A stretch of DNA of 64,000 nucleotides from Desulfuromonadales bacterium (GTDB lineage: Bacteria; Desulfobacterota; JAENJC01). The stretch is taken from contig CAKKSC010000022.1 of assembly GCA_919902985.1 (NCBI GenBank), forward strand, positions 3,436-67,435, in the 5' to 3' direction. The position numbers and the translations under genes were made by a program. The notes below the pieces were generated by a model, which had not been told where the DNA came from, did no database searches, and saw only the letters and a program-made list of their open reading frames with translations. Positions 714 through 28,608 of this stretch are shown in pieces (positions within the stretch are counted from its first letter, which is position 1; every line of letters starts with the position of its first letter).

Positions 714-1838
714 CTATTTTGAGGACTCCATTGCCATTTCAAGGAAGTGACCAAAGGCATTTTTAGTAAGAGCCGTATACTGGACAGGGTCCACAACAAC
801 CCCGGTGCGAGTGATGCTTGCACTGCTGCCTCGTCCTCCACCCATGGCTGCCATCATCCCAACGGCCTGAGTGATACCTCCTGCCACCTTGTCGCCGGTT
901 GATGTCTCATCCTTGATCTCTTTAACAAAGTCTTTCTGAGCGATGATCGGGTATTTGAGAAGGAATTCGGGATTTTTCCCGTTAGTCATGCACTCCTGCT
1001 TCCCGGAAAAAGGCGCCTTCCAGCATTTCATTGACTCGTTCGCCACGAACATGACCTGGCCCCGTACTGCAAGCCGCACCTCTCCTTTTACCGATGCCGT
1101 ATCTCTTGAGGCATGCTTCTGCATCCCGTCGCTGCTCCCCTCAAGTCTGGCGAAATCAACCATGATATCGACGTGGGCTGCGTCAGCCTTCAGGGAATCG
1201 ATAAGACGTCCCTCGTGCATCAATGGAGAATTGCCTGATGCCTGTGAGAAGGCCATTGAAAGGGCTTTCCCGGTTCCTACATAAGCAGGATTAAAGACCT
1301 TCTGTCCTTTTGGAGCAAGCACCTTGTACTTTGCCTTGCTCCCTGGAGGTGTGAACTCAAATGGGCTGTCCTTACCGCCTTCGTGCATCTTCAGGAAGTG
1401 CTCATTAGATGCAAGTTCTGAAGCAGGGACAATAGCCCGCCCGGATGCCTTGATACCCTGTTCCGCCTGCAAACAGAGGTCCTCTGCAAGCTGCTGCAAC
1501 TGTTCATCGCTTATGCCGCGCAGGTAATAGAATGAGCTTACTTTAGCATCAACCCGCCCTTTGCTTTCACTGGACGGAGCAAAGGCTCCAACACCTGTCT
1601 CAGCGCTGGCACTGGTCATCTCACCGACAAGGACATTGCAGGATGTGATGGCGATCTTGTCAAGATTCTTATTGTTCTTGGTGTTACGTGCATCGATGAA
1701 CTGGACGGCCTGGGAGGCGGCTGACTGAGAAGGGTCGAATTTTGGGTCAGGCTTAGTCATCCCCCCACAGCCGCTGAGAATGCCTCCAATAATGATCGGA
1801 TATACTATCTTTACTGGTATTCTGGTTCTGATTTTCAT
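714..1838 (-). CDS. lipoprotein of unknown function
   Basis: ORF 714..1889. Best start is the internal MKIRTRIPVKIVYPIIIGGILSGCGG (signal peptide + lipobox LSGC) preceded by AAGGAGAAAAC. No family recognised. Confidence 0.6.
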   Translation of the reverse strand: MKIRTRIPVKIVYPIIIGGILSGCGGMTKPDPKFDPSQSAASQAVQFIDARNTKNNKNLDKIAITSCNVLVGEMTSASAETGVGAFAPSSESKGRVDAKVSSFYYLRGISDEQLQQLAEDLCLQAEQGIKASGRAIVPASELASNEHFLKMHEGGKDSPFEFTPPGSKAKYKVLAPKGQKVFNPAYVGTGKALSMAFSQASGNSPLMHEGRLIDSLKADAAHVDIMVDFARLEGSSDGMQKHASRDTASVKGEVRLAVRGQVMFVANESMKCWKAPFSGKQECMTNGKNPEFLLKYPIIAQKDFVKEIKDETSTGDKVAGGITQAVGMMAAMGGGRGSSASITRTGVVVDPVQYTALTKNAFGHFLEMAMESSK

Positions 1839-2049
1839 GTTTTCTCCTTTTTGATTTTTATTGTCAGCCGGAAAGATGATTGTGAGCAAAACCCTTTCTT
1901 GTTATCATTGTTCCAACAGCCTTGGAATTTAGCTTTAGCGTACAAATCAGATGAGTCCAGTTCAATAGCCGGATAAATCATGATTTGTTGACGCGGCTAT
2001 TATCAAAGAGTTCGGGACACCTGTAAATAGCAGGAATTAACCTTTTTGC

Positions 2050-2067
2050 ATGACTAAAATTAGTCAT
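2050..2067. promoter_or_regulatory. perfect palindrome ATGACTAAAATTAGTCAT in divergent promoter region
   Basis: 8-2-8 inverted repeat between the divergently transcribed lipoprotein gene and the NarL-type regulator. Candidate operator. Confidence 0.3.
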
Positions 2068-2163
2068 TTATTTTAATGACGCATCGATGTATAAAGGAAA
2101 AGATAATCTATTTTCTGACAGTTATTTCTCTATCTGCAAAACAAAGGGGCTGGTGATTTAATC

Positions 2164-2841
2164 ATGATGCATGTCGTAATTGTTGAAGATGATCCCCTTG
2201 GAGGAAGCCTTTTAAGGGAATATGTTGATGGCGGAGAAGTTCGGGTCAACGCCCTTTATACGTCGGGAGAAGAGGCCGTGGAAGCGTTGGGGAAGCTGCC
2301 GCTGCCCGATGTCATCCTTATGGATGTGGGTCTTCCAGGCATGTCCGGGATTGAAACAACAGAGATCATAAAAAAGAAGTACCCTTCCATTGAAATCATT
2401 ATTCAGACTATTTTTGAAGATGCTGAGGTAATTACTGACGCCATTAAAGCCGGAGCGACAGGTTATCTCCTCAAGGCCTCCCCGAAGGAAGAAATTCTGA
2501 AAGCCATATGGGAGGTTAAGTCGGGCGGCTCATACTTATCCGGGAAGATTGCCAGGAAGGTATTGCAGCAATTCAACAGGTCTGAAACAACTTCCTCTCA
2601 GGAAGGCCTAAGGGAAGAGAGCGCCCACCGTTTTCAGCTCACACCCAGGGAAGAGTTAATCCTTGGGGAGCTGATCAGGGGAGCATCCTACAAGATGATT
2701 GCCGATGCACTATGCATCAGTGTTCATACGGTCAACAACCATGTCCGCAAGATTTACGAAAAGATGCACGTCAACTCACGGGGAGAGGCTGTTGCCCTGG
2801 CAACAGGATGGGATGAAGGGAGTTCTTCCATTCCCCGCTGA
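2164..2841 (+). CDS. NarL/FixJ-family response regulator (REC + LuxR-type HTH)
   Basis: N-terminal receiver (VIVEDDP...ILMDVGLPGMSG) and C-terminal LuxR HTH (YKMIADALCISVHTVNNHVRKIYEKM). Confidence 0.85.
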   Translation: MMHVVIVEDDPLGGSLLREYVDGGEVRVNALYTSGEEAVEALGKLPLPDVILMDVGLPGMSGIETTEIIKKKYPSIEIIIQTIFEDAEVITDAIKAGATGYLLKASPKEEILKAIWEVKSGGSYLSGKIARKVLQQFNRSETTSSQEGLREESAHRFQLTPREELILGELIRGASYKMIADALCISVHTVNNHVRKIYEKMHVNSRGEAVALATGWDEGSSSIPR

Positions 2842-2862
2842 GAACGCCTCTCTTCTATGTCC

Positions 2863-4119
2863 TTAAAAGAACGAGGTAACCCGCAAATAATAGTCGCGCA
2901 CGTTGGGGAAATTCATTCCACTATAGGTGTCCTGTACCTCCAGCTTGACTATCAGTGGCATGGGGAGGTTCCCGCGCTGCCAGCGTTCAATACCACTCCA
3001 AGAAATAGAGGCACGCCACTGATCTGCACGGACGCTTGTGTTTTTCTCCAGGGATGCTGTATCCGTTCCCTGTCCTGATCCGTATCGGTCACTTCCCTTG
3101 TCGTAACGATGCCATGTGCCGGACAAACGCCAGTTGGCCAGACTTTTTCCCAGTTCAACGTCGTATTCAAAGTAATCACCCAGGTCGCGCGTCACCCTTT
3201 CTTTAGTTGCCGATGTGGCCAACAGCTCGCCCGGAGCCGGAACCCGGACAGTTCTATGGTCCTCCATCTGGACGTTATGTTCTACGAGAAGGCGGGCGTC
3301 AAAACCGGCACCCAGGCTGCGGAAGTACTCCACCCTTGCCCTCAGGTCGGTACTGCCGTCTCCAAGAGGGACATCGAGAAGGTTATCAGGGTCGTCCTCC
3401 CTGGCCAGACCAAAGCGGACGCCAAGGCCGAGGATTGCGCTGTCATGTTTGCCCTTATGAAATCGCCATAGAATCCCGACAGTAGGATCAGAGAAACCGG
3501 ACACGGTCGTTTCTTCGATCCTTTTATATCCATAGCCAAAGGCAGGGTCCGTCAGTATTTTCTGGAGGCCTTCTGTTCCCACTGGCTCTGTAGCCCCGGC
3601 GCCAACGGGAGCGAAAGGGAAGTTTGCGGCGCCTATCGGCACACCTGGATTAAACGCGGGATTGAAACCGATATTCCCGCCTGAGACTGAAAAATTTGCG
3701 GCTGCTCTGCTCCGCCCGAAGGGAAGTTGCAATCCGAGAGTCAGGTTATCAGTCAGACCATAACCGACGAGAAGTTCAGCAAAGAGATTTTCAACTTTTG
3801 AGTCAATAGACATATTGCCAAGGGACATGCCGGGGCCAAAAACCGTCAGAGAAGGAAAGATGCTGCTCCCCAGATCGAGCCCATCGTATTTTTTGTCGAG
3901 ATCAACAAGGTTGCCATCTTCATCATACCACTTATCATAACCATTGACGCGTACCTCAAGTCGCGCTGCCCATCGTCCCCTGGGAGCCATGACATCCAGC
4001 CCATGCGACGCGGACGATTGTAACTTTTCCTCAGCATAAGCAGTTGAAGATATTACCGTGGACATAAAAAAGCATGTAATCATCAAGCGTAGTGCTCTGC
4101 CATAAAAAGCAGTTTCCAT
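2863..4119 (-). CDS. outer-membrane beta-barrel protein (porin-like)
   Basis: N-terminal signal peptide; alternating amphipathic segments; C-terminal ...RVTSFF with terminal Phe, typical of OM beta-barrels. Confidence 0.55.
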   Translation of the reverse strand: METAFYGRALRLMITCFFMSTVISSTAYAEEKLQSSASHGLDVMAPRGRWAARLEVRVNGYDKWYDEDGNLVDLDKKYDGLDLGSSIFPSLTVFGPGMSLGNMSIDSKVENLFAELLVGYGLTDNLTLGLQLPFGRSRAAANFSVSGGNIGFNPAFNPGVPIGAANFPFAPVGAGATEPVGTEGLQKILTDPAFGYGYKRIEETTVSGFSDPTVGILWRFHKGKHDSAILGLGVRFGLAREDDPDNLLDVPLGDGSTDLRARVEYFRSLGAGFDARLLVEHNVQMEDHRTVRVPAPGELLATSATKERVTRDLGDYFEYDVELGKSLANWRLSGTWHRYDKGSDRYGSGQGTDTASLEKNTSVRADQWRASISWSGIERWQRGNLPMPLIVKLEVQDTYSGMNFPNVRDYYLRVTSFF

Positions 4120-4155
4120 AAAGTGATTCCTCCCGGGATTTTTCTTAAATTACCC

Positions 4156-6009
4156 CTACAGCAAAAGTTCCATTGTAATGCACGTTCCTTCACCCGGATT
4201 TGACCGGATATTCAGTCCTGCATTCATTTCCCTGCATCGTCGCTCCATATTTTTCAGGCCGTGGCCACCGCCTGTCCGCCGGGCTGAATCAAAACCCCGC
4301 CCATCATCCTTAATTTCAAAAGTTATCTTTTCTGCATCATCTCTGATGTTTACAGTAATTGTCTTTGCATCCCCATATTTGATAGTATTGGTCAACGCCT
4401 CCTGGAATATGCGAAGCAGGTTGAGACTGACAATATGGGGAACCATCCGCTCTTCATTGATCAGTCTCCTCGATACGCTGCACTCGAGACCGGCCATCAG
4501 GGCAACTTCTTTGGTCTTTTCTCCCAGGTGAAACGACAGCACTCCCATCGTTGCCATTTCACCTTCCATGGTGAGTATAAGATTTCTCAGCTCTGCCAGA
4601 CCTTCGTCCAGTACCCCTCTCAGTTGAGAAAGCCGCATTTCCGGTTCGGGCGCGCCTCTGAGGATAAGATCAACCAGCATGACGCCATTGGAAAAATTTC
4701 TGCCCAGGCCGTCATGAATTTCTCTGGAGATTCGCTCCCTTTCATCCGTCACAGCCTGTTTCGTTTCCATTTCCCGCATCTGCGCATGTGAGATCTCGAT
4801 CTCTGTTCTGGCTGCATTGACTCTATTTTCAAGCTCCTTGTTCAATGCCTCCGCTTCATCAAGGGCCGTAATAAAGCGCCGTATGAGATGCCAGGCCATG
4901 ATCATGAAGATAATCGGCGCTGAATAGTGATTAAGGTGAAAGTCGGTAAAGCCTGTAGATGAAATAAGCCGGGACTGTAAGATCCAGTCATGCACAGCAG
5001 TTAGAAGTACAATGGCGATGCCGAGGCCCATCACCCCCGACTCCCGGCTCCCCTCGACCTTCCAATGGCGAAGGAGTTGGAAGGCAGTATAAAAACCGAG
5101 AAGCATGGAGCCGCTATACCAGAAGACCGCCACACCGTTCATCTCGCCCAGTTCGGCAAAGGCCAGTGCAACCCCCCCTGAAACAGCAAAAAGGAGATAA
5201 ATCGATTCGAGTACTCTTCTTTTGCGCTTAAGAAAACGGTGCGAGAATATGGCAAGAAAAATGGTCCACCAGGTCAGGCTCCCATATGCTACCCAGTCCC
5301 AGGCCTTCGCCGATAGAGGGATGTCATGAATAAACAGGTTAAGGCTAAAAATAGACCACATCAGAACGGAAAGCGCAAACCACAGGTAGGAGGTATCGTT
5401 GCGTCTTCTGACCCAGAGAGCAAACATGAAGACGCCTACAGCAAGAGTCTCCGGGAAAAGCATGGCGCTGATATCGTTCTGAAACAGCTTTCTTAACTCG
5501 AATCGACGCTGAAGCAGCTTAATATCACCTAACTGGAGAGGTGATAGCTGGATATCATAAGGATAACCTTTAATGCGCACATCGATAATGTTCTCACCGG
5601 AACGCCACAGCGCCGGAGGAACGGTAAAAAGGAGCGGCCGGTTCCAGTTGCGCGCAACAGGCTCTTCAAATGAGCCGCCGTCGCCGATAAACTGCCCGTT
5701 AAGAAAAACTGCGGCATTCATACTGAGTTTTTGAAGATAGATCCCCCAGGTATTTGCTGGGCAGGCATCCAGTTGAAGATGAAGACGATACCAGCCGTTT
5801 TGCCCTTTTTTGTAAAGCCCCTTTTCCCAATGATGGGGGAGCGTCAGCGGACGCCATTGATCCGGTGGGAGGATAGGGGGAGTTGAAGCATTGGAAAGGA
5901 CAAATCCCGCCTCTGAAATATCACGGAGACCGCTGCTATCGGAAGTTTGGCCGCCAAAAGCCACAGATGGTGCAAGGAGTAGCAGGAAAAAAACGAGCAG
6001 TTTATTCAT
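4156..6009 (-). CDS. 7TMR-DISM sensor histidine kinase (HisKA_3/NarX-type)
   Basis: Signal peptide, periplasmic 7TMR-DISM-like domain, 7 TM helices, then HisKA_3 (ERERISREIHDGLG) and HATPase (GGGHGLKNM). Likely partner of the NarL-type RR at 2164. Confidence 0.8.
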   Translation of the reverse strand: MNKLLVFFLLLLAPSVAFGGQTSDSSGLRDISEAGFVLSNASTPPILPPDQWRPLTLPHHWEKGLYKKGQNGWYRLHLQLDACPANTWGIYLQKLSMNAAVFLNGQFIGDGGSFEEPVARNWNRPLLFTVPPALWRSGENIIDVRIKGYPYDIQLSPLQLGDIKLLQRRFELRKLFQNDISAMLFPETLAVGVFMFALWVRRRNDTSYLWFALSVLMWSIFSLNLFIHDIPLSAKAWDWVAYGSLTWWTIFLAIFSHRFLKRKRRVLESIYLLFAVSGGVALAFAELGEMNGVAVFWYSGSMLLGFYTAFQLLRHWKVEGSRESGVMGLGIAIVLLTAVHDWILQSRLISSTGFTDFHLNHYSAPIIFMIMAWHLIRRFITALDEAEALNKELENRVNAARTEIEISHAQMREMETKQAVTDERERISREIHDGLGRNFSNGVMLVDLILRGAPEPEMRLSQLRGVLDEGLAELRNLILTMEGEMATMGVLSFHLGEKTKEVALMAGLECSVSRRLINEERMVPHIVSLNLLRIFQEALTNTIKYGDAKTITVNIRDDAEKITFEIKDDGRGFDSARRTGGGHGLKNMERRCREMNAGLNIRSNPGEGTCITMELLL

Positions 6010-6230
6010 AATATAATTTTCATAAAACCCTATTTAACTCTGTTTAAAGAATCTATAAACATACTGAAGTCATGTCAGTTGTCCCGAATACAGACGCAGT
6101 GCGCTTTTCGTGGATGAGAAGAATATCATAAGATAGGTAGCAACACAACGTAGAAAGAAACCTAAACTCATCGTTTTTAACCCTATTCTATGATAATCTA
6201 TGCGCATAAATCGATGATTGGGAGGCTACA

Positions 6231-7379
6231 GTGACAGAAGACAGGATCAGGGAAATCATACATGAAGCGGAGGAGTGTTATAACAGACTCGCTTCGACCA
6301 TAGTGGAGATACCCGATTACACACTCGACAGCCTACCAAAAGAAAAAAGTAACAGCTTTATAAATGGGGGACTTTATGAGTTCACAGCATACAGGAGGGA
6401 GTTTAAAGCACGGCTCATCTTCATCTGCCTTAAGGCCCCGGATGAGCAGGCCTATTTTCTGGAGAGGTTCAGGATTTACAGCATGGAAAGCCCTCAGGGG
6501 ATTGAAAGGGCAGATGACCCGGCGTATTTAAAAGGGACCGGGGAATCGGTTTATCTGAGGATACCGGCTGGTTCCACAATCCTTGATATCGGATGTGGGA
6601 CCGGTAAGTATCTTAAGGTTATGAATGGCAGAAATATTACTACTCTGGCCATGGATATATCAAAAGAGCTTATAGATGAGGACAGGAAGTCGCTGGATTT
6701 GAAGGGTGTCCGCTTCTTCCCAGGCGACTGTCTCGACCTGCGCTTTCTGAAAGAGAAGGAACTGGACTTTCTCACCGGGGTCAACATCCTGAATGTCCTC
6801 TATCCGGAGATGGTTGAGTCCTTGCTGGATCAGGGGGCAAGGGTGGCAAAAGGCGGTCTGTTTGCCTTTACACTCCCTGCCAGGGCAGATATTTGGACTG
6901 AGTACTCGCCGGATTTGGAGGACCATTCAGGAAGGGGGTTGAAAAGGGGCTCGGATGAGTATCTTGAGGTCGCCTCCAATCAGACCTTTCGTGGTCAGAT
7001 GAGGCTCTTCTCCCATGTCAGGAGACTGTGCTCTGAAAAAGGCTGGAAATGGAGGATATTCAGGTTTGTAGATAGCTCCATCCTGGACTCGTTTAAGTTT
7101 AACAAGACCCTGGATGTTAGATATCTGAAGGAAGGGGAGGATTCGCTCTTAAAGCTCCTTGAATTCCCTGTAAGGAGGGCAGGCCATTCGGAAGTCCCGC
7201 CAGAGGGTTCATTCCTCGTGTGCGCCATAGGTTACGGCTTGGAGGTGTACTTTGGAGGGGATGAGCTTCCGCCAGCTGAAGAGGTCAGTTATTTTAATGC
7301 CGATGCGCTGTTCGAGAGATTCGAGATCAGACAGGAGCAGAAAGAGTCCATAGCCCGCTGGAACCTGCCTTTTGTATAG
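6231..7379 (+). CDS. class I SAM-dependent methyltransferase-domain protein
   Basis: Motif I ILDIGCGTGKYL and acidic motif II LAMDIS; N- and C-terminal regions unassigned. Confidence 0.6.
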   Translation: MTEDRIREIIHEAEECYNRLASTIVEIPDYTLDSLPKEKSNSFINGGLYEFTAYRREFKARLIFICLKAPDEQAYFLERFRIYSMESPQGIERADDPAYLKGTGESVYLRIPAGSTILDIGCGTGKYLKVMNGRNITTLAMDISKELIDEDRKSLDLKGVRFFPGDCLDLRFLKEKELDFLTGVNILNVLYPEMVESLLDQGARVAKGGLFAFTLPARADIWTEYSPDLEDHSGRGLKRGSDEYLEVASNQTFRGQMRLFSHVRRLCSEKGWKWRIFRFVDSSILDSFKFNKTLDVRYLKEGEDSLLKLLEFPVRRAGHSEVPPEGSFLVCAIGYGLEVYFGGDELPPAEEVSYFNADALFERFEIRQEQKESIARWNLPFV

Positions 7380-23412: not shown

Positions 23413-25146
23413 ATGAAAAACGCTATAAAGATGGATACAAATAGCTTGAGACGCCTTGCCGGGTCGCGCTCTTTTGAGCGAGGTGAGGCGTATTTTGAAG
23501 AGGGAAGGGTCGGCAGTCTTGTGGAAGACAAGGGGAGGATCACGGCCTTTGTTCACGGATCGAGCAAATACAGGGTAAAGTTATGGGATGAGGACGGCCT
23601 TGAATACGAATGTTCATGTCCTGTTGGCCAGGACGGTGATTTCTGCAAGCACTGCGTGGCAGTCGGCTTGACCTGGTTGGCAGGAAATGACAATAAGGGA
23701 AAGAACGCCCTCTCTTCAGGCTCAAAGGTTACCTTTAAAGATATACGCTCCTATCTGCTGACGCAAGACAAGGAAATGCTGACGGAGATGATTCTGGATC
23801 AGGCTGCGGAGGATGAACGACTGCGGAATAAGCTCCTATTGCAGGCGGCAAGCAGTAAAAAGGAAGGGATAAACCTGACTGCCTACAGGCAGGCGATTGA
23901 CAATGCCGTAAGTCCCGATGGGTATGTTGGTTATTATGAGATGTACGACTACTCTCAAGGGATAGATGAGGTGGTCTCCTCCGTCTCCGAACTGCTGAAA
24001 AAAGGCAAGGCCGCTAAAGTAATCGAACTCTGTGAGTATGCACTTCGTAAAGTTGAAAAGGCAATCAATCACGTGGATGACTCGGACGGTCACATGGGCG
24101 GCATCCTGGAAAGGCTTCAGGAGCTTCATCTCTCCGCCTGCAAAAAGGCCAAGCCCGACCCGGAGGCGCTTGCAAAAAGACTGTTTGATTGGGAAATAAG
24201 CGGAGAATGGGACACCTTTTACGGCGCAGTCAAGGCCTATTCGGAAGTCCTCGGCAAAAAAGGACTTGCCTTATACCGGCAGTTAGCAGAGGAGGAGTGG
24301 AAAAAGATAAAACCTCTTGGCCCTGGTGAGAAAGACTCTGACCGGTACGGCATGCGATTCAGAGTAACGCATATTATGGGAGACCTTGCAAAGGAATCCG
24401 GCGACATAGAAGCCCTTGTGGCAATAAAGAGCCGCGACCTGTCGAACTCTTATGACTTTTTGAATATTGCCGAGATTTACAAGGGGTCCGGCAACAGAAA
24501 AAAAGGATTAGATTGGGCGGAGCTCGGCCTCAAGACATTCCCTAAAAAGCCGGATTCTCGGCTCATGGATTTTGTGGCAGAGGAGTATCACCATCTCAAA
24601 CGCCACGACGAGGCGATGAAGCTGATATGGATGCAGTTTGAGGAAAATCACACTTTCCATACGTACGATAAATTGAAAACCCATGCGGACAAGACCGGAG
24701 AATGGCCAGCTTGGAGGGAAAAGGCCTTAAAAGCGATACGCGAGGATTTAAAGCGCAACATGAAGGTCGGCAAGTCCCCCTGGCCCTGGATGAAAGGACA
24801 TGACCACTCCCTACTTGTTGAGATTTTCCTCTTTGAGAAAAATATTGATGTCGCATGGAAAGAGGCCAACGATGGAGACTGTTCCGACTCCCTCTGGTTC
24901 AGGCTTGCGGAGGCACGCGAAAAAGGCCACCCGAATGATGCCATAGACGTTTATCAGAAGATGATAAACCCTATTGTTGACCGGAAGAACAACAGCTCAT
25001 ACGAAGAGGCAACAAAGCTTATCATGAAGATTCATGCGTTAATGAAGAATATCGGCGAAGAATCAAAGTTTGCGTCTTATCTAAACTCCGTCAGAAGCGC
25101 TCATAAACCTAAGAGGAACTTTATGAAGCTGTTGGAGCGGATATAA
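23413..25146 (+). CDS. SWIM zinc-finger domain protein
   Basis: N-terminal SWIM CxC-Xn-CxH (YECSCPVGQDGDFCKHC) and a long alpha-helical C-terminal region; RBS AAAGAGGTG. Confidence 0.7.
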   Translation: MKNAIKMDTNSLRRLAGSRSFERGEAYFEEGRVGSLVEDKGRITAFVHGSSKYRVKLWDEDGLEYECSCPVGQDGDFCKHCVAVGLTWLAGNDNKGKNALSSGSKVTFKDIRSYLLTQDKEMLTEMILDQAAEDERLRNKLLLQAASSKKEGINLTAYRQAIDNAVSPDGYVGYYEMYDYSQGIDEVVSSVSELLKKGKAAKVIELCEYALRKVEKAINHVDDSDGHMGGILERLQELHLSACKKAKPDPEALAKRLFDWEISGEWDTFYGAVKAYSEVLGKKGLALYRQLAEEEWKKIKPLGPGEKDSDRYGMRFRVTHIMGDLAKESGDIEALVAIKSRDLSNSYDFLNIAEIYKGSGNRKKGLDWAELGLKTFPKKPDSRLMDFVAEEYHHLKRHDEAMKLIWMQFEENHTFHTYDKLKTHADKTGEWPAWREKALKAIREDLKRNMKVGKSPWPWMKGHDHSLLVEIFLFEKNIDVAWKEANDGDCSDSLWFRLAEAREKGHPNDAIDVYQKMINPIVDRKNNSSYEEATKLIMKIHALMKNIGEESKFASYLNSVRSAHKPKRNFMKLLERI

Positions 25147-25247: not shown

Positions 25248-25529
25248 ATGCAAACAGCAATTTTGAAAACTGAGATTTATAAAGAAATATCCTTGCTGCG
25301 TGAGGACAAGTTAAGCGAGGTCAAAGACTTCATAGAATTTATCCTATCCCGCCAGAAACCTTCAAAAAAGGATGTTGTGCAATTAAAGGGAATTTGGGCG
25401 GACAAGGGTTTTGAAAAAATCGGAAATCTTGAGAAAGAACTTAAATCCATTCAAAAAATGACAATGCAGTCTATTATAAAAGCGAAAGGGCCGTCCAGGT
25501 CAATATTGCCATTATGCGGGCCTTTGTAA
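25248..25529 (+). CDS. DUF2281-like small protein (antitoxin-type), with a non-native 3' end
   Basis: N-terminal [27 protein letters not shown] pattern; the tail overlaps a decayed ORF6N-family remnant. Confidence 0.4.
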
Positions 25530-25689
25530 AACTCAGGGAAATCCTATCGACACATAAAGAACTTGCCCATAAATTGGCTGAGCATGAAAGGAAGATCGAG
25601 AACACGATGGAGAGATAAAAGTAATCTTTGACGCCATCCGCGGGCTAATGGCGGCACCGGAGCCGAAAAAGAAGAAGATAGGGTTTTGA
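25445..25689 (+). pseudogene. remnant of ORF6N-family gene (C-terminal part, stop + frameshift)
   Basis: ...[41 protein letters not shown], then in the +2 frame VIFDAIRGLMAAPEPKKKKIGF*, matching the usual C-terminus of ORF6N-domain proteins. Confidence 0.5.
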
Positions 25690-25825
25690 GCCTCCCCTCT
25701 TAAGATAAGAGGGTTTATGCCCTGTGGGTAGATTGAGGGGCGTTATGAAAGTGTTCCAGTGGGGAGTGAATTAGCTATGGTGTCCCCGGAATTTCTGAAG
25801 GGCGTATTAGGGGCGCTAAAGTGGT

Positions 25826-26041
25826 GTGCGGAGCGGGCTTAAATCAATCTGTTTGCTAATAAATATGGGAAGTGTCCCTCATTTCCCCTCATTTCCCCTT
25901 GGTATTCAAGAAACAAAGAGCGACAGCGCAACTAAGAACCGCAGGTTCTTGCGCCGTCTTCAACAGATAGATAAGCTTCCAAAACGTGACCAGGAAGCCC
26001 TTTTACGGACGATTGATGCTTTTCTTGCAAAGGGGGAATGA
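25826..26041 (+). CDS. hypothetical small protein
   Basis: 71-aa ORF followed 3 nt later by another small ORF; low confidence. Confidence 0.25.
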   Translation: MRSGLKSICLLINMGSVPHFPSFPLGIQETKSDSATKNRRFLRRLQQIDKLPKRDQEALLRTIDAFLAKGE

Positions 26042-26044
26042 TCT

Positions 26045-26221
26045 ATGCACGATAATTTCGATTCAGCCTTTGACGAACTCCTGGAGAAGGGGTTTATTGA
26101 ATACGTCGAGAAAAGACCGGACGGCGAACCGGAATACCGGCTCACCGCCAAAGGAATTAAGCAAAAGGGGCAGTTGGACTTATTGGAGAGAAAGAAGGGG
26201 GCTAATCTGAACCACCCGTAA
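26045..26221 (+). CDS. hypothetical small protein (58 aa)
   Basis: MHDNFDSAFDELLEKGFIEYVEKRPDGEPEYRLTAKGIKQKGQLDLLERKKGANLNHP; below the ORF-track cutoff; low confidence. Confidence 0.25.
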   Translation: MHDNFDSAFDELLEKGFIEYVEKRPDGEPEYRLTAKGIKQKGQLDLLERKKGANLNHP

Positions 26222-26224
26222 AAA

Positions 26225-27001
26225 TTAAGACCCCTTGAGATAGTAATAGAACATCCAGCTATTTTTGAACATGTGAAATACTATCGGGTGAATCAAAGAA
26301 CCACGTCTTTTATATAGCCACACAAAAAATAAGCCGGTAATAAACACACCGATGCTTGGTAATAAAGGATAAAAATGGGAATGTGTCCAAAGCAAAGATG
26401 ACAGGATGGCGGCAGCAAACCCGCCTAATTTCCTATAAAGTGGGCTATAAAGTAATCCTCGGAATACCGTCTCTTCTACTACCGGAGCAAGAATTACTGT
26501 ATTAAAAAAGTAGAATATGAAGACCTTCCAATTCAGTGATTTAATTTCATTTAACTGCGAATCTAAGGGATTAATAATCAAGTTAAAATTCAAAAAATAG
26601 ATGCTTAAAGCATTAAATAGCAACAGAACTGCGCAGAGCTTCACAATAAAGGGAAACTGGTTAAGTTTCAGATTAAATGCCGTGATAACAGACACCCTGT
26701 GTCTGTAAAAATATACGAGTGCCAAGATAAAGATAAAAGCATAGTCAACAAACGCATAAACCTCAAAGTTAAAAGAATTATATTCAAAGTATTGAACAAA
26801 AGGAATAGCGCTCCAAAACCATTGAATTAAAGCGAGGCTTAGATAAAAGATTAATATTATTATTACAGGGATTAAGGACCAGTTCTGCCTTTTAAGTGAT
26901 TCACTCTCAGGCTCGAACCGATCCTTAAATAATGTCAGCAATAGAAGAAGAATGACAGGGAAATATAAATAGATAAATAGTTGAAAATAGGCCATCCGCA
27001 T
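26225..27001 (-). CDS. CPBP-family intramembrane metalloprotease (CAAX protease/Abi), candidate immunity protein
   Basis: EExxxR motif (VVEETVFRGLLY) and FxxxH (WTHSHF) in a polytopic membrane protein; sits directly downstream of the RHS C-terminal fragment. Confidence 0.8.
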   Translation of the reverse strand: MRMAYFQLFIYLYFPVILLLLLTLFKDRFEPESESLKRQNWSLIPVIIILIFYLSLALIQWFWSAIPFVQYFEYNSFNFEVYAFVDYAFIFILALVYFYRHRVSVITAFNLKLNQFPFIVKLCAVLLLFNALSIYFLNFNLIINPLDSQLNEIKSLNWKVFIFYFFNTVILAPVVEETVFRGLLYSPLYRKLGGFAAAILSSLLWTHSHFYPLLPSIGVFITGLFFVWLYKRRGSLIHPIVFHMFKNSWMFYYYLKGS

Positions 27002-27004
27002 CGT

Positions 27005-27763
27005 TTACTTACAACTTGGTGGTGGCGTCTCAGCATTTGCTGGCTTAGGAGTAAATATATTTGGGTCAAGTATTATTGGAAGAAGAGTTCCTTTTGTTAC
27101 AGTCCTCACAACAGGAGCAATAACACCCTTCCAAGCAGCCTGACCTACCGTCACACCTCCATTTATCCCGACTGTTCCAAACTGTCCAGGTATTGCATTA
27201 CCGCCGGATGGAGTCATACCATTTAAATTAGAAGGTAAAGGTCCCGTATAATTACTCGGCGGAGTATATGGATTATCCGGCATAACGTTCGTAAACCCTG
27301 GGCCAGTTATTCCGAAAAGACCCGAAGGGTCAATCCAGTTCACCGGGTTATTTCCCACGTACCCGTACAGGCTCATATCACCGCCCGCAAACCCGATTGG
27401 GTCTTTTGCCGTCCATTTCCCTGTCTCCGCATCATAATCCCTGGCCCCAAACCTCGTCAGCCTTGTATCCCTGTCATACAAGCCGCCCGCAAAGCCAAAC
27501 GGCTGGAACCCAGGATTGGTATCGTTTATGACTTCTCCGAATTCGTTATAATCAAGCTGCTGCGCTATTGCGCCTGTGGAGGCATTTACCACAAGGCGAG
27601 GGCTTCCAAGATGATCGGTAATGATGCGATATGTAATGCCGCCTTTAATCATGTACTCCGGGATGTTCGTATTGTTAGCATAAACAAATCTTGAAACTAC
27701 GTTTCCAGCGCCGTGGGAAACCTTGGGGACGTTGTTTCTATTCATGTAATTCTTATGTGACAA
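27005..27763 (-). CDS. orphan RHS repeat-associated core + C-terminal toxin domain (5'-truncated)
   Basis: [16 protein letters not shown]...[19 protein letters not shown]...[12 protein letters not shown] hallmark, then a ~105-aa Gly/Pro-rich C-terminal domain. No YD-repeat body; weak TTG start without RBS. Confidence 0.75.
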
Positions 27764-28112
27764 CGTTCAGAAATCCAGGACACTTCCGCTATTCCTCTAC
27801 AATCTTCATCAGTACGTTTTTTATATTAATTTGACGTTAGAATTATTGCGCAGGGGGATAAAGGAGTCAATAAAAATGTTTCGATTAATAAGCCTTTCCT
27901 TCGACAAGCCTGCGACGAGCTCAGTCGAGCACTCAGGATGAACGGTTGTTGAGAGGACATCAAGGACAACTCCACCCCCACCGCTGACAAAACCGCTTAT
28001 AGTTCAAGCGTTCAAAATATCTACATGTGTTTCTGATATTGCTAATGTTGGCTGCGAATAGGGATTAGTTGTAAACCCCTGTGGTGCGGTGAATGAAAAA
28101 ATATTACGTCCG

Positions 28113-28457
28113 CTAAACTGCCGCGTACACGACCTTTCCCGTCCTTTTGATTTCGCCCAGGAATGAAGCTTTGTCCGCCTTGCTGAACTCATCAGGAGAA
28201 CAGCCTATGGGTTCTACAACTGATAAATATTTTGATATCGCCTTTGCCAGTTTTTCCTGTATCATCAAGATGCCCTTCCCGGCAAAAGAGGGTGATATTA
28301 TTGCAATATCCACATCGGAGAACTCTCTTGGGTTGCCATTTGCATAAGAGCCATACAAAACGATCTCCTTGACCTTTATCTTGTGAGCCTCAAGGTCGTA
28401 AACCACATTATCTATTATCTTCTTTAAATCTCCCTGAGATAGTTTTGCTTTAGCCAT
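28113..28457 (-). CDS. nucleotidyltransferase-domain protein (MNT-type)
   Basis: LYGSYANGNPREFSDVDIAI minimal nucleotidyltransferase motif; no intact HEPN partner next to it. Confidence 0.75.
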   Translation of the reverse strand: MAKAKLSQGDLKKIIDNVVYDLEAHKIKVKEIVLYGSYANGNPREFSDVDIAIISPSFAGKGILMIQEKLAKAISKYLSVVEPIGCSPDEFSKADKASFLGEIKRTGKVVYAAV

Positions 28458-28568
28458 TTTATAACCTCTTTGCTTTTCTTTAAATGCTCTTCTGCGGTCG
28501 TTTTGTTAAACTGCCTGGCCAGTTTTGCAAAATCTTCCGGGTATCGAAATCCAGTATAAAGGAATTTC

Positions 28569-28608
28569 ATTTGCAATCACAGCATATTTTCAGTTAAGCT
28601 GTATCCTG
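28569..28608 (+). promoter_or_regulatory. conserved ~40-nt upstream element, copy 2 (metY leader)
   Basis: atttgcaatcacagcatattttcagttaagctgtatcctg, 25 nt upstream of the metY start. Confidence 0.4.

Follow-up and report, generated by a model that had tools for sequence, protein, structure and literature searches.

A 64-kb stretch of DNA from a metagenome-assembled genome (MAG) of a Desulfuromonadales bacterium (assembly GCA_919902985.1, contig CAKKSC010000022.1, positions 3,436 to 67,435; hereafter the window, whose own numbering is used throughout) carries on its minus strand the 3′ end of an RHS gene, followed directly by a gene for a CPBP-family membrane protease. The RHS open reading frame (ORF) lies at 27005..27763 and encodes 252 residues from TTG 27763, or 246 residues from ATG 27745, which is the start used by public gene calls (P0001, 'MAG: Deltaproteobacteria bacterium'). 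The protease gene (26225..27001, 258 residues) is on the same strand, and its ATG lies 3 nucleotides past the RHS stop. An earlier note on this DNA, made from the letters alone, had placed both ORFs at these positions and had read them as a toxin tip with its candidate immunity protein. It had also held that the RHS ORF has no proper start; an ATG does exist at 27745, though no obvious Shine-Dalgarno sequence was found for it.

Residues 72-149 of the RHS ORF match the Rhs-associated core model TIGR03696 (Rhs_assc_core; E 8.6e-22, 77.4 bits against a cutoff of 32.5), and residues 26-143 match the end of the TEN_YD-shell profile PF25023 (profile positions 771-893 of 909). The RHS-derived segment (27317..27750, minus strand) comprises the last shell strands and the core, and ends in DPSGL (residues 145-149, 27317-27331), the autoproteolysis and junction motif. 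The core announced by the earlier note is present, but the ORF does not begin exactly at the first core peptide quoted there: it begins about 45 residues upstream of that peptide, in the last shell strands. Only the last ~120 positions of PF25023 are represented, which falls short of a YD-shell body. RHS and TcC shells free their tips through aspartyl autoproteolysis at DPxGL; the cargo cut after this motif is held within the shell until delivery. In our core alignment (A1, with 59 invariant core columns), D145, P146 and G148 are invariant, and divergence among the sequences sets in directly after DPSGL. At the other end, RHS homology fades upstream of about residue 6, a breakpoint placed by reading the upstream frames by eye against the RHS consensus and from alignment A1.

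An apparent truncation of this kind could also arise if an intact rhs gene had been broken by a sequencing frameshift, and we searched the upstream DNA for the missing body. The non-coding spacer (27764..28112, minus strand, 349 nucleotides) that separates the fragment from the next upstream gene, an MntA-like nucleotidyltransferase, has stops in all three frames and shows no YD motif, no RHS similarity or remnant, and no repeat. When the window was searched by tblastn with the complete 1988-residue RHS protein of a relative (L018), only query residues 1740-1988 matched, at 27008-27754 and with 55% identity; no YD repeats were found elsewhere in the 64 kb, nor was an N-terminal delivery or secretion domain found for the fragment within the window. 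The locus is carried by 13 public contigs from groundwater and other metagenomes, which represent one population, and the eight that were read align to the window at 99.3-100% identity. The upstream stops, the identity of the next gene, the single tblastn match and the agreement of independent assemblies at 100% identity rule out the frameshift explanation, the probability of which we consider practically nil. The locus is a truncated RHS gene and a genuine orphan cassette of the RHS tip and immunity type, and the earlier description of it as displaced and without a YD-repeat body is borne out.

What follows DPSGL is a tip of 103 residues (27008..27316, minus strand), a putative toxin, close in length to the ~105 residues of the Gly/Pro-rich C-terminal domain noted earlier and indeed rich in glycine (15%) and proline (17%). 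Family alignments divide it into an N-module (FGxxGPGFxNV ... AIPGQFGT, the final motif at 27173-27196), a GxxxGxxxG stretch (27143-27169) and a C-module of 45 residues (27008..27142), which is the sole part kept in every CPBP-linked tip. A comparison with profile libraries, which the earlier note had suggested, leaves the domain unassigned: the tip has no match in Pfam, NCBIfam or PADLOC, and its profile retrieved nothing from the PDB chain sequences at E≤10 other than one unrelated chain at E 1.6. The family is small, with 16 representatives at E≤1e-3 among 1.84 billion proteins; this count comes from an exhaustive HMMER search, a word-index profile search having given only 3 tips and missed known members. 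In 11 of the 11 ordinary-length members that were read, the tip is placed directly after DPxGL. Two very long proteins, which matched the tip profile through many short repeated stretches only, stand outside these eleven.

The conserved features of the family are GL-[FLI]G-x-FGPG[FL]xN[VI], a variable Pro-rich linker, AIPGQFGT and YGTPxPIxxxP, with GxxxGxxxG in most members and PxPAEAAxxxC often found near the end. The conserved residues are G, P, F, Q, N, A, I and T; a conserved set of His, Asp, Glu, Ser or Cys of the kind expected for an enzyme was not found in the family alignment. A low-confidence AlphaFold2 model built from 13 sequences places one long helix over tip residues 45-75, and this predicted helix holds the glycine zipper in most members, the GxxxGxxxG pattern being present in the window tip and in L018, L014, P0148, P0161 and P0159. 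Beside CPBP, L181-183, L098, L180 and L056 keep the C-terminal ~45 residues alone and have either no N-module or another one, which identifies the C-module as the piece that co-occurs with CPBP. The reverse combination is seen in P0160, in which the N-module is joined to a different hydrophobic C-terminus. In the RHS ORF of L016/L017 (upstream of P0124), about 180 Gly/Ala-rich, zipper-like residues (…IGAAIGAIIGGTTSAVTGG…GAIGGAFLGAASGYG…) lie between the DPSGH core end and the C-module; this stretch is possibly a membrane-inserting domain.

The protein encoded downstream is a CPBP/Rce1-like intramembrane glutamic protease homologue and the putative immunity protein. Its residues 161-248 match PF02517 (Rce1-like; E 8.4e-18, 64.9 bits against a cutoff of 22.4), while residues 1-160 are clade-specific and lie outside the general profile. 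The catalytic motifs EExxxR (26459-26476), (F/W)xxxH with H209 (26375-26377) and HxxxN (26261-26275, all minus strand) are intact, and an alignment shows E176, E177, R181, H209, H243 and N247 to be invariant in 18 of 18 clade members. The AlphaFold2 model (pLDDT 85) is all-helical, with 13 helices that we read as about eight predicted membrane spans. The best NCBIfam matches are all below their cutoffs: MrtJ (NF033192, 47 against 75), MrtS (NF040589, 42 against 130) and myxosortase (NF040914, 29 against 100). PADLOC has no model for either the RHS fragment or the CPBP protein.

The association of this protease with RHS tips is not peculiar to the window. The CPBP clade comprises 19 clusters with 39-71% identity to the window protein among 5.8 billion proteins, and it follows an RHS C-terminus or a tip remnant wherever the upstream DNA can be read. 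The most complete case is L018, a Desulfonema MAG, in which a complete 1988-residue RHS protein with a TIG-TTR-NHL propeller-YD shell ends in DPEGL plus the tip; a domain scan found no PAAR in this protein. Its tip is 64-66% identical to that of the window, and its CPBP protein, which begins 9 nucleotides after the RHS gene, is 71% identical. Hidden Markov model (HMM) matches confirm an RHS core directly upstream of seven CPBP clusters (P0121, P0122, P0133, P0136, P0124, P0129 and P0131), and a core detected in this way abuts CPBP at L009-L011, L014/L015, L016/L017, L180 and L181-L183, with long RHS ORFs at L014/L015 (>1065 residues) and L180 (>1118 residues). RHS or tip remnants precede CPBP at P0139 (L012), L098 and the P0150 locus, and at the P0127 locus an 854-residue ORF, known from its gene coordinates, ends exactly at the CPBP start. 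Orphan versions also exist: P0148 and P0150 start at VDPDGL and carry the tip, with a 255-residue Rce1-like gene downstream at the P0150 locus and, at the P0148 locus, a downstream 174-residue gene cut by the contig end; P0148 is adjoined by integrase, primase and toxin-antitoxin (TA) genes. The intergenic gap is 3 nucleotides in the window, 0-10 in L009-11, L014-18 and L181-183, ~120 at the P0150 locus and ~240 at the decayed L180 locus.

As a control, we examined ~157 generic CPBP loci, collected when genomes and metagenomes were scanned with patterns that were drawn from the CPBP alignment and consisted of the universal catalytic motifs, and an RHS core was nearby in only 2 of them (L056 and L172). 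The tip, for its part, is also found behind unrelated cores (P0149, L016), and L018 and L181 have cores that are 86% identical and tips that are 25% identical, which reads as tips swapped on conserved cores in the classic manner. The pairing proposed in the earlier note is supported by these comparisons: the same pair follows intact or long RHS genes (L018, L015, L011), and the clade is essentially confined to that setting. A CPBP gene conserved at this locus without the RHS fragment, which would have spoken against the pairing, was not seen; the two co-occur on the 13 contigs wherever the contig reaches, albeit within one population. On this sequence evidence, the downstream CPBP is the specific partner of the tip and not a chance neighbour. 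A search of a plasmid collection did not find the tip and returned only distant Bacillus and Lactiplantibacillus CPBPs.

Several further arrangements were seen among the relatives. In L056 (delta proteobacterium MAG, 1234-7363), a more distant form of the RHS-tip-CPBP arrangement, a frameshift or an assembly error splits the long RHS gene at ~5112. The tip of this gene, with ...IIIPKESIKKINPFIPSPAEACPSK as its last residues, overlaps a distant CPBP of 247 residues. Next come a second orphan RHS core, which bears another tip, and a 98-residue membrane protein, in a typical main-gene-plus-orphan array. In L172 (47-1073), an RHS core end (DPYGL) carries a 56-residue, highly charged tail, followed by a 225-residue CPBP that is unrelated to the window clade beyond the catalytic motifs. 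Recruitment of a CPBP gene beside an RHS tip may have happened repeatedly, and L056 and L172 point to two or more additional instances. Among the closest RHS-core homologues, many (e.g. P0012, P0044, P0103 and P0119) are just 190-430 residues long, even on megabase contigs or complete genomes, an example being the 306-residue protein of Desulfurivibrio alkaliphilus; short core-plus-tip orphans seem to be very common in the RHS-core clade of the window.

We consider it probable that the locus is an orphan polymorphic-toxin cassette, made up of a teneurin-like RHS 3′ end, a rare 103-residue tip and a cognate CPBP protein as immunity partner. Full-length YD-shell proteins of relatives carry this same tip as their C-terminal cargo. 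Its active part would be the C-terminal 45-60 residues: an amphipathic helix, usually with GxxxGxxxG, and then a short hydrophobic, Pro-flanked segment. Such a peptide would act, in the way of a bacteriocin, on the cytoplasmic membrane of the target cell. That the tip is a membrane-acting peptide of this type is our best guess, tentatively held, and we infer the membrane action by analogy. The CPBP protein, placed in the inner membrane of the producer with its catalytic residues intact, would neutralise the peptide, most likely by cleavage, on the model proposed for PlnI, PlnL and SkkI, the Abi/CPBP immunity proteins of class IIb bacteriocins. Taken more generally, and a little more speculatively still, Desulfobacterota YD-shell proteins might deliver a peptide-sized membrane toxin while a CPBP protease destroys the incoming peptide, a form of enzymatic immunity.

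A number of observations weigh against this interpretation. The GxxxGxxxG pattern is absent from P0152, P0155, P0158, P0162 and L181, and with several members lacking it the glycine zipper is therefore not a universal mechanism. The tip has no hydrophobic stretch of transmembrane grade (the highest Kyte-Doolittle mean over 19 residues is 1.55), its hydrophobic moment is modest (~0.3), and its structural model has a confidence (pLDDT 55) too low for a fold search. Across six loci, the pairwise identities of tips and CPBPs show no co-variation (Spearman -0.43, n=15 pairs); we had considered such co-variation as support and set it aside as not informative. Among 5.8e9 proteins, a search for an rhs gene of this organism that matches the core found none, the best non-self core being 72-79% identical. 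Expression of the cassette is suggested only weakly, by consensus promoter and terminator matches. CPBP proteases are also known in maturation roles: the CAAX protease SilX is required for bacteriocin production, not immunity (PMC9298176). Finally, the toxin and immunity roles are themselves deduced from sequence and analogy.

The cassette lies within a low-GC accessory patch (~23.4-28.6 kb) between methionine/thiamine biosynthesis genes and an O-acetylhomoserine sulfhydrylase gene, together with a PDC-S62 candidate defence protein, a DUF2281 ORF, an MntA-like gene and a HEPN stub. GC content is 37-43% at 25248-26221 and 32-36% over the CPBP gene, compared with ~48-50% in the flanks, and no tRNA, repeat or integration scar was found flanking the cassette. 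The candidate defence protein (23413-25146, plus strand) has 577 residues, with a SWIM zinc finger and DUF6880; it matches PADLOC PDC-S62 end to end (E 3e-65) and also matches the N-terminus of DpdE models. Between it and the CPBP gene (25248-26221, plus strand) are small ORFs: one resembles DUF2281 (E 8e-5, which does not reach the Pfam cutoff), and two short ones give weak winged-helix matches. On the other side of the cassette (28113-28576, minus strand), the MntA-like nucleotidyltransferase of 114 residues matches PADLOC PDC-S09 and, below cutoff, NCBIfam MntA; the 50-residue ORF that precedes it matches only the last ~35 HEPN profile positions, and the two look like a decayed HepT/MntA toxin-antitoxin pair. 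Consensus matching gave a promoter-like site 80-100 nucleotides upstream of the RHS ORF start (TTGACT-17-AATAAT, 27842..27870, minus strand, 10 of 12 matches) and a terminator-like hairpin 76 nucleotides past the CPBP stop (26120..26149, minus strand, 13-bp stem and T-rich tail). The promoter-like site is the best one seen and the hairpin a strong one, and together they bracket the RHS-CPBP pair; this is weak evidence, and the number of promoter-like sites in the sequence is not above the shuffled expectation.

What, then, does the CPBP protein do for the tip? Its function as antidote and the membrane target of the tip are read from gene order, decay patterns and analogy with the Abi immunity proteins. 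Immunity to sakacin 23K and to plantaricins EF and JK is reported to be conferred by Abi/CPBP proteins, which are proposed to act by proteolysis (PMC8538875, citing Kjos 2010). The alternative is that CPBP is a processing, maturation or export protease, which would trim or release the peptide via the C-module in the producer, in the manner of SilX and MroQ on signalling peptides, or of the PrsW-family peptidases, CPBP relatives proposed as toxin-release devices for some polymorphic toxins (Zhang et al. 2012, PMC3482391). The SilX and PrsW precedents favour such a role, the short C-module that always co-occurs with CPBP would suit a recognition or cleavage site, and the catalytic residues are strictly conserved. 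The decay of the loci points the other way. In three of them the toxin side is degraded and the CPBP ORF is full-length: in L012 the RHS end KDPLGL is followed by just 29 residues, in L098 the C-module stands alone beside an IS200-like remnant, and in L180 there is an in-frame stop within the tip (the catalytic motifs of the proteases in these loci were checked by eye in L098 only). The window itself has lost the RHS shell and has kept an intact CPBP ORF. This asymmetry favours immunity over processing, because an antidote is useful without its toxin and a dedicated processing enzyme is not. The shell's autoproteolysis at DPxGL would moreover free tips with no extra protease, and the CPBP gene sits directly downstream of the tip, in the canonical immunity position. 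CPBP is probably the antidote of the tip, and we regard a processing role as unlikely.

A second question is what the cassette does at present. Since the shell is gone, this gene cannot deliver the tip, and the value of the cassette would now lie in CPBP as an orphan immunity protein against neighbours that carry the full weapon, which is most likely its current function; at best, it might also serve as a recombination reserve for an rhs gene outside the window. No full-length rhs sharing the core was found in the 64-kb window by tblastn, the source being a MAG and the genome incomplete, and a full-length rhs elsewhere in the genome, as the earlier note predicted, is if anything weakly disfavoured. 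With no near-identical rhs core in the protein database, the recombination-reserve role lacks support. The cassette might instead be an inert relic of a past rhs locus, or a horizontally acquired fragment among decayed TA and defence genes, with neither gene expressed or selected. The truncated RHS gene without a Shine-Dalgarno sequence, the HEPN remnant and small fragmentary ORFs around it, the drop in GC over the CPBP gene and the failure to find a full-length partner would all fit a relic, and because the 13 contigs represent one population they provide no evidence of selection. Against it, neither ORF is interrupted, no family motif is missing from the tip and no catalytic residue from CPBP, the promoter-like site and the hairpin bracket exactly this pair, and there are known cases of orphan immunity genes that are kept and of use (PMC10539506); we therefore think an inert relic improbable. 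Less likely again is an internal toxin-antitoxin module, in which the fragment is translated in the cell and CPBP counteracts it, as reported for the Salmonella orphan rhs. Orphan rhs genes without a delivery part do have a precedent (PMC7043789), the cassette lies among TA-like genes (the MntA-like nucleotidyltransferase and the DUF2281 ORF), and the 3-nucleotide gap would couple the two genes closely in translation. However, a peptide neutralised by an intramembrane protease would need to act from within the cytoplasm of the producing cell, and nothing in the data argues for that; neither a regulator nor a sign of autoregulation was seen at the locus, and the tip family is otherwise joined to full delivery shells. 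Orphan immunity remains the reading that we prefer for the present-day cassette.

It is instructive to compare the cassette with known systems. The orphan rhs-CT/rhsI modules of Enterobacteria are a well-known kind of element (Poole 2011, PMC3150448; Koskiniemi 2014, PMC3967940). The window cassette resembles them in being a truncated gene with a partial core up to DPxGL, a variable tip and a tightly linked partner, and in lacking the delivery shell. Those enterobacterial modules reportedly adjoin full-length rhs genes, whereas the window cassette stands alone in a TA/defence patch, with no main rhs detected for the organism. Its parent shell is also of another type, teneurin-like (TIG-TTR-NHL-YD), with neither PAAR nor another type VI marker found in the relatives examined, and its partner is an eight-helix protease homologue instead of a small binding protein. 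With PlnI, PlnL and SkkI (Kjos et al. 2010, cited in PMC8538875), the cassette shares a PF02517 membrane protein with conserved catalytic motifs beside the gene for a small Gly-rich peptide, a toxin there and a putative one here. Their toxins, however, are class IIb peptides that Gram-positive bacteria make as free molecules with a leader, whereas here the peptide is covalently joined to an RHS shell as its cargo, in Desulfobacterota; in addition, residues 1-160 of the window CPBP, its N-terminal half, are clade-specific.

Tse5 (RhsP1) of Pseudomonas aeruginosa is an Rhs protein whose C-terminal toxin forms pores and which is paired with a membrane immunity protein, Tsi5 (PMC9637101, PMC10684867). 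On the interpretation proposed here, the window tip and its relatives would likewise be non-enzymatic, membrane-acting cargo of an RHS shell, with a membrane protein as immunity partner. In contrast to Tse5, the window tip lacks transmembrane-grade hydrophobic helices and its partner is a protease homologue; no sequence similarity to Tse5 was detected for the tip in the PDB sequence library, from which the full Tse5 sequence may be absent. CPBP is not among the immunity families in the 2012 polymorphic-toxin survey, where it appears only as a PrsW relative (Zhang et al., PMC3482391), and the tip family is absent from that survey too. Full-text searches of the literature gave neither the tip family nor an account of CPBP-based immunity to RHS, type VI secretion system or polymorphic toxins. 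The architecture of the cassette is ordinary; what is new is a tip family outside the curated profile libraries searched, and CPBP as its constant partner.

If the protease is the antidote, immunity here would be enzymatic rather than based on binding, and the CPBP protease family would gain a defined substrate, a peptide of 45-100 residues. To our knowledge, direct substrates of bacterial CPBP members have rarely been defined. If the wider proposal is true, polymorphic-toxin systems would have their first described case of immunity by proteolysis, and this mechanism would link the class II bacteriocin immunity of Gram-positive bacteria to the contact- or shell-delivered toxins of diderm bacteria. 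The pair of RHS tip and CPBP is small enough for direct co-expression testing.

The sorting CPBPs, MrtJ, MrtS and myxosortase, are the best NCBIfam matches of the window protein and act on a C-terminal tag of partner proteins. The likeness is limited: the scores are far under the cutoffs, and the window tip lacks the tripartite signal of a signature motif, a transmembrane helix and a basic cluster. We also considered a CaaX-type substrate, as many tips of the family end in ...C-K, ...C-P or ...C-N-R, and rejected this as specific evidence, since a near-terminal Cys is enriched in unrelated tips and is missing from several CPBP-linked ones (L009, L016, P0154, P0161 and P0163). The comparison, in which the window was represented by its tip end (27008-27016), covered 78 unrelated tips on similar RHS cores (P0002-P0120). 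A Cys falls within the last 7 residues in 27 of these 78, where ~14% would be expected from the Cys content of the remaining tip sequence (binomial p 6.5e-6), and within the last 3 residues in 18 of the 78, with ...CP, ...CK and ...C as typical ends.

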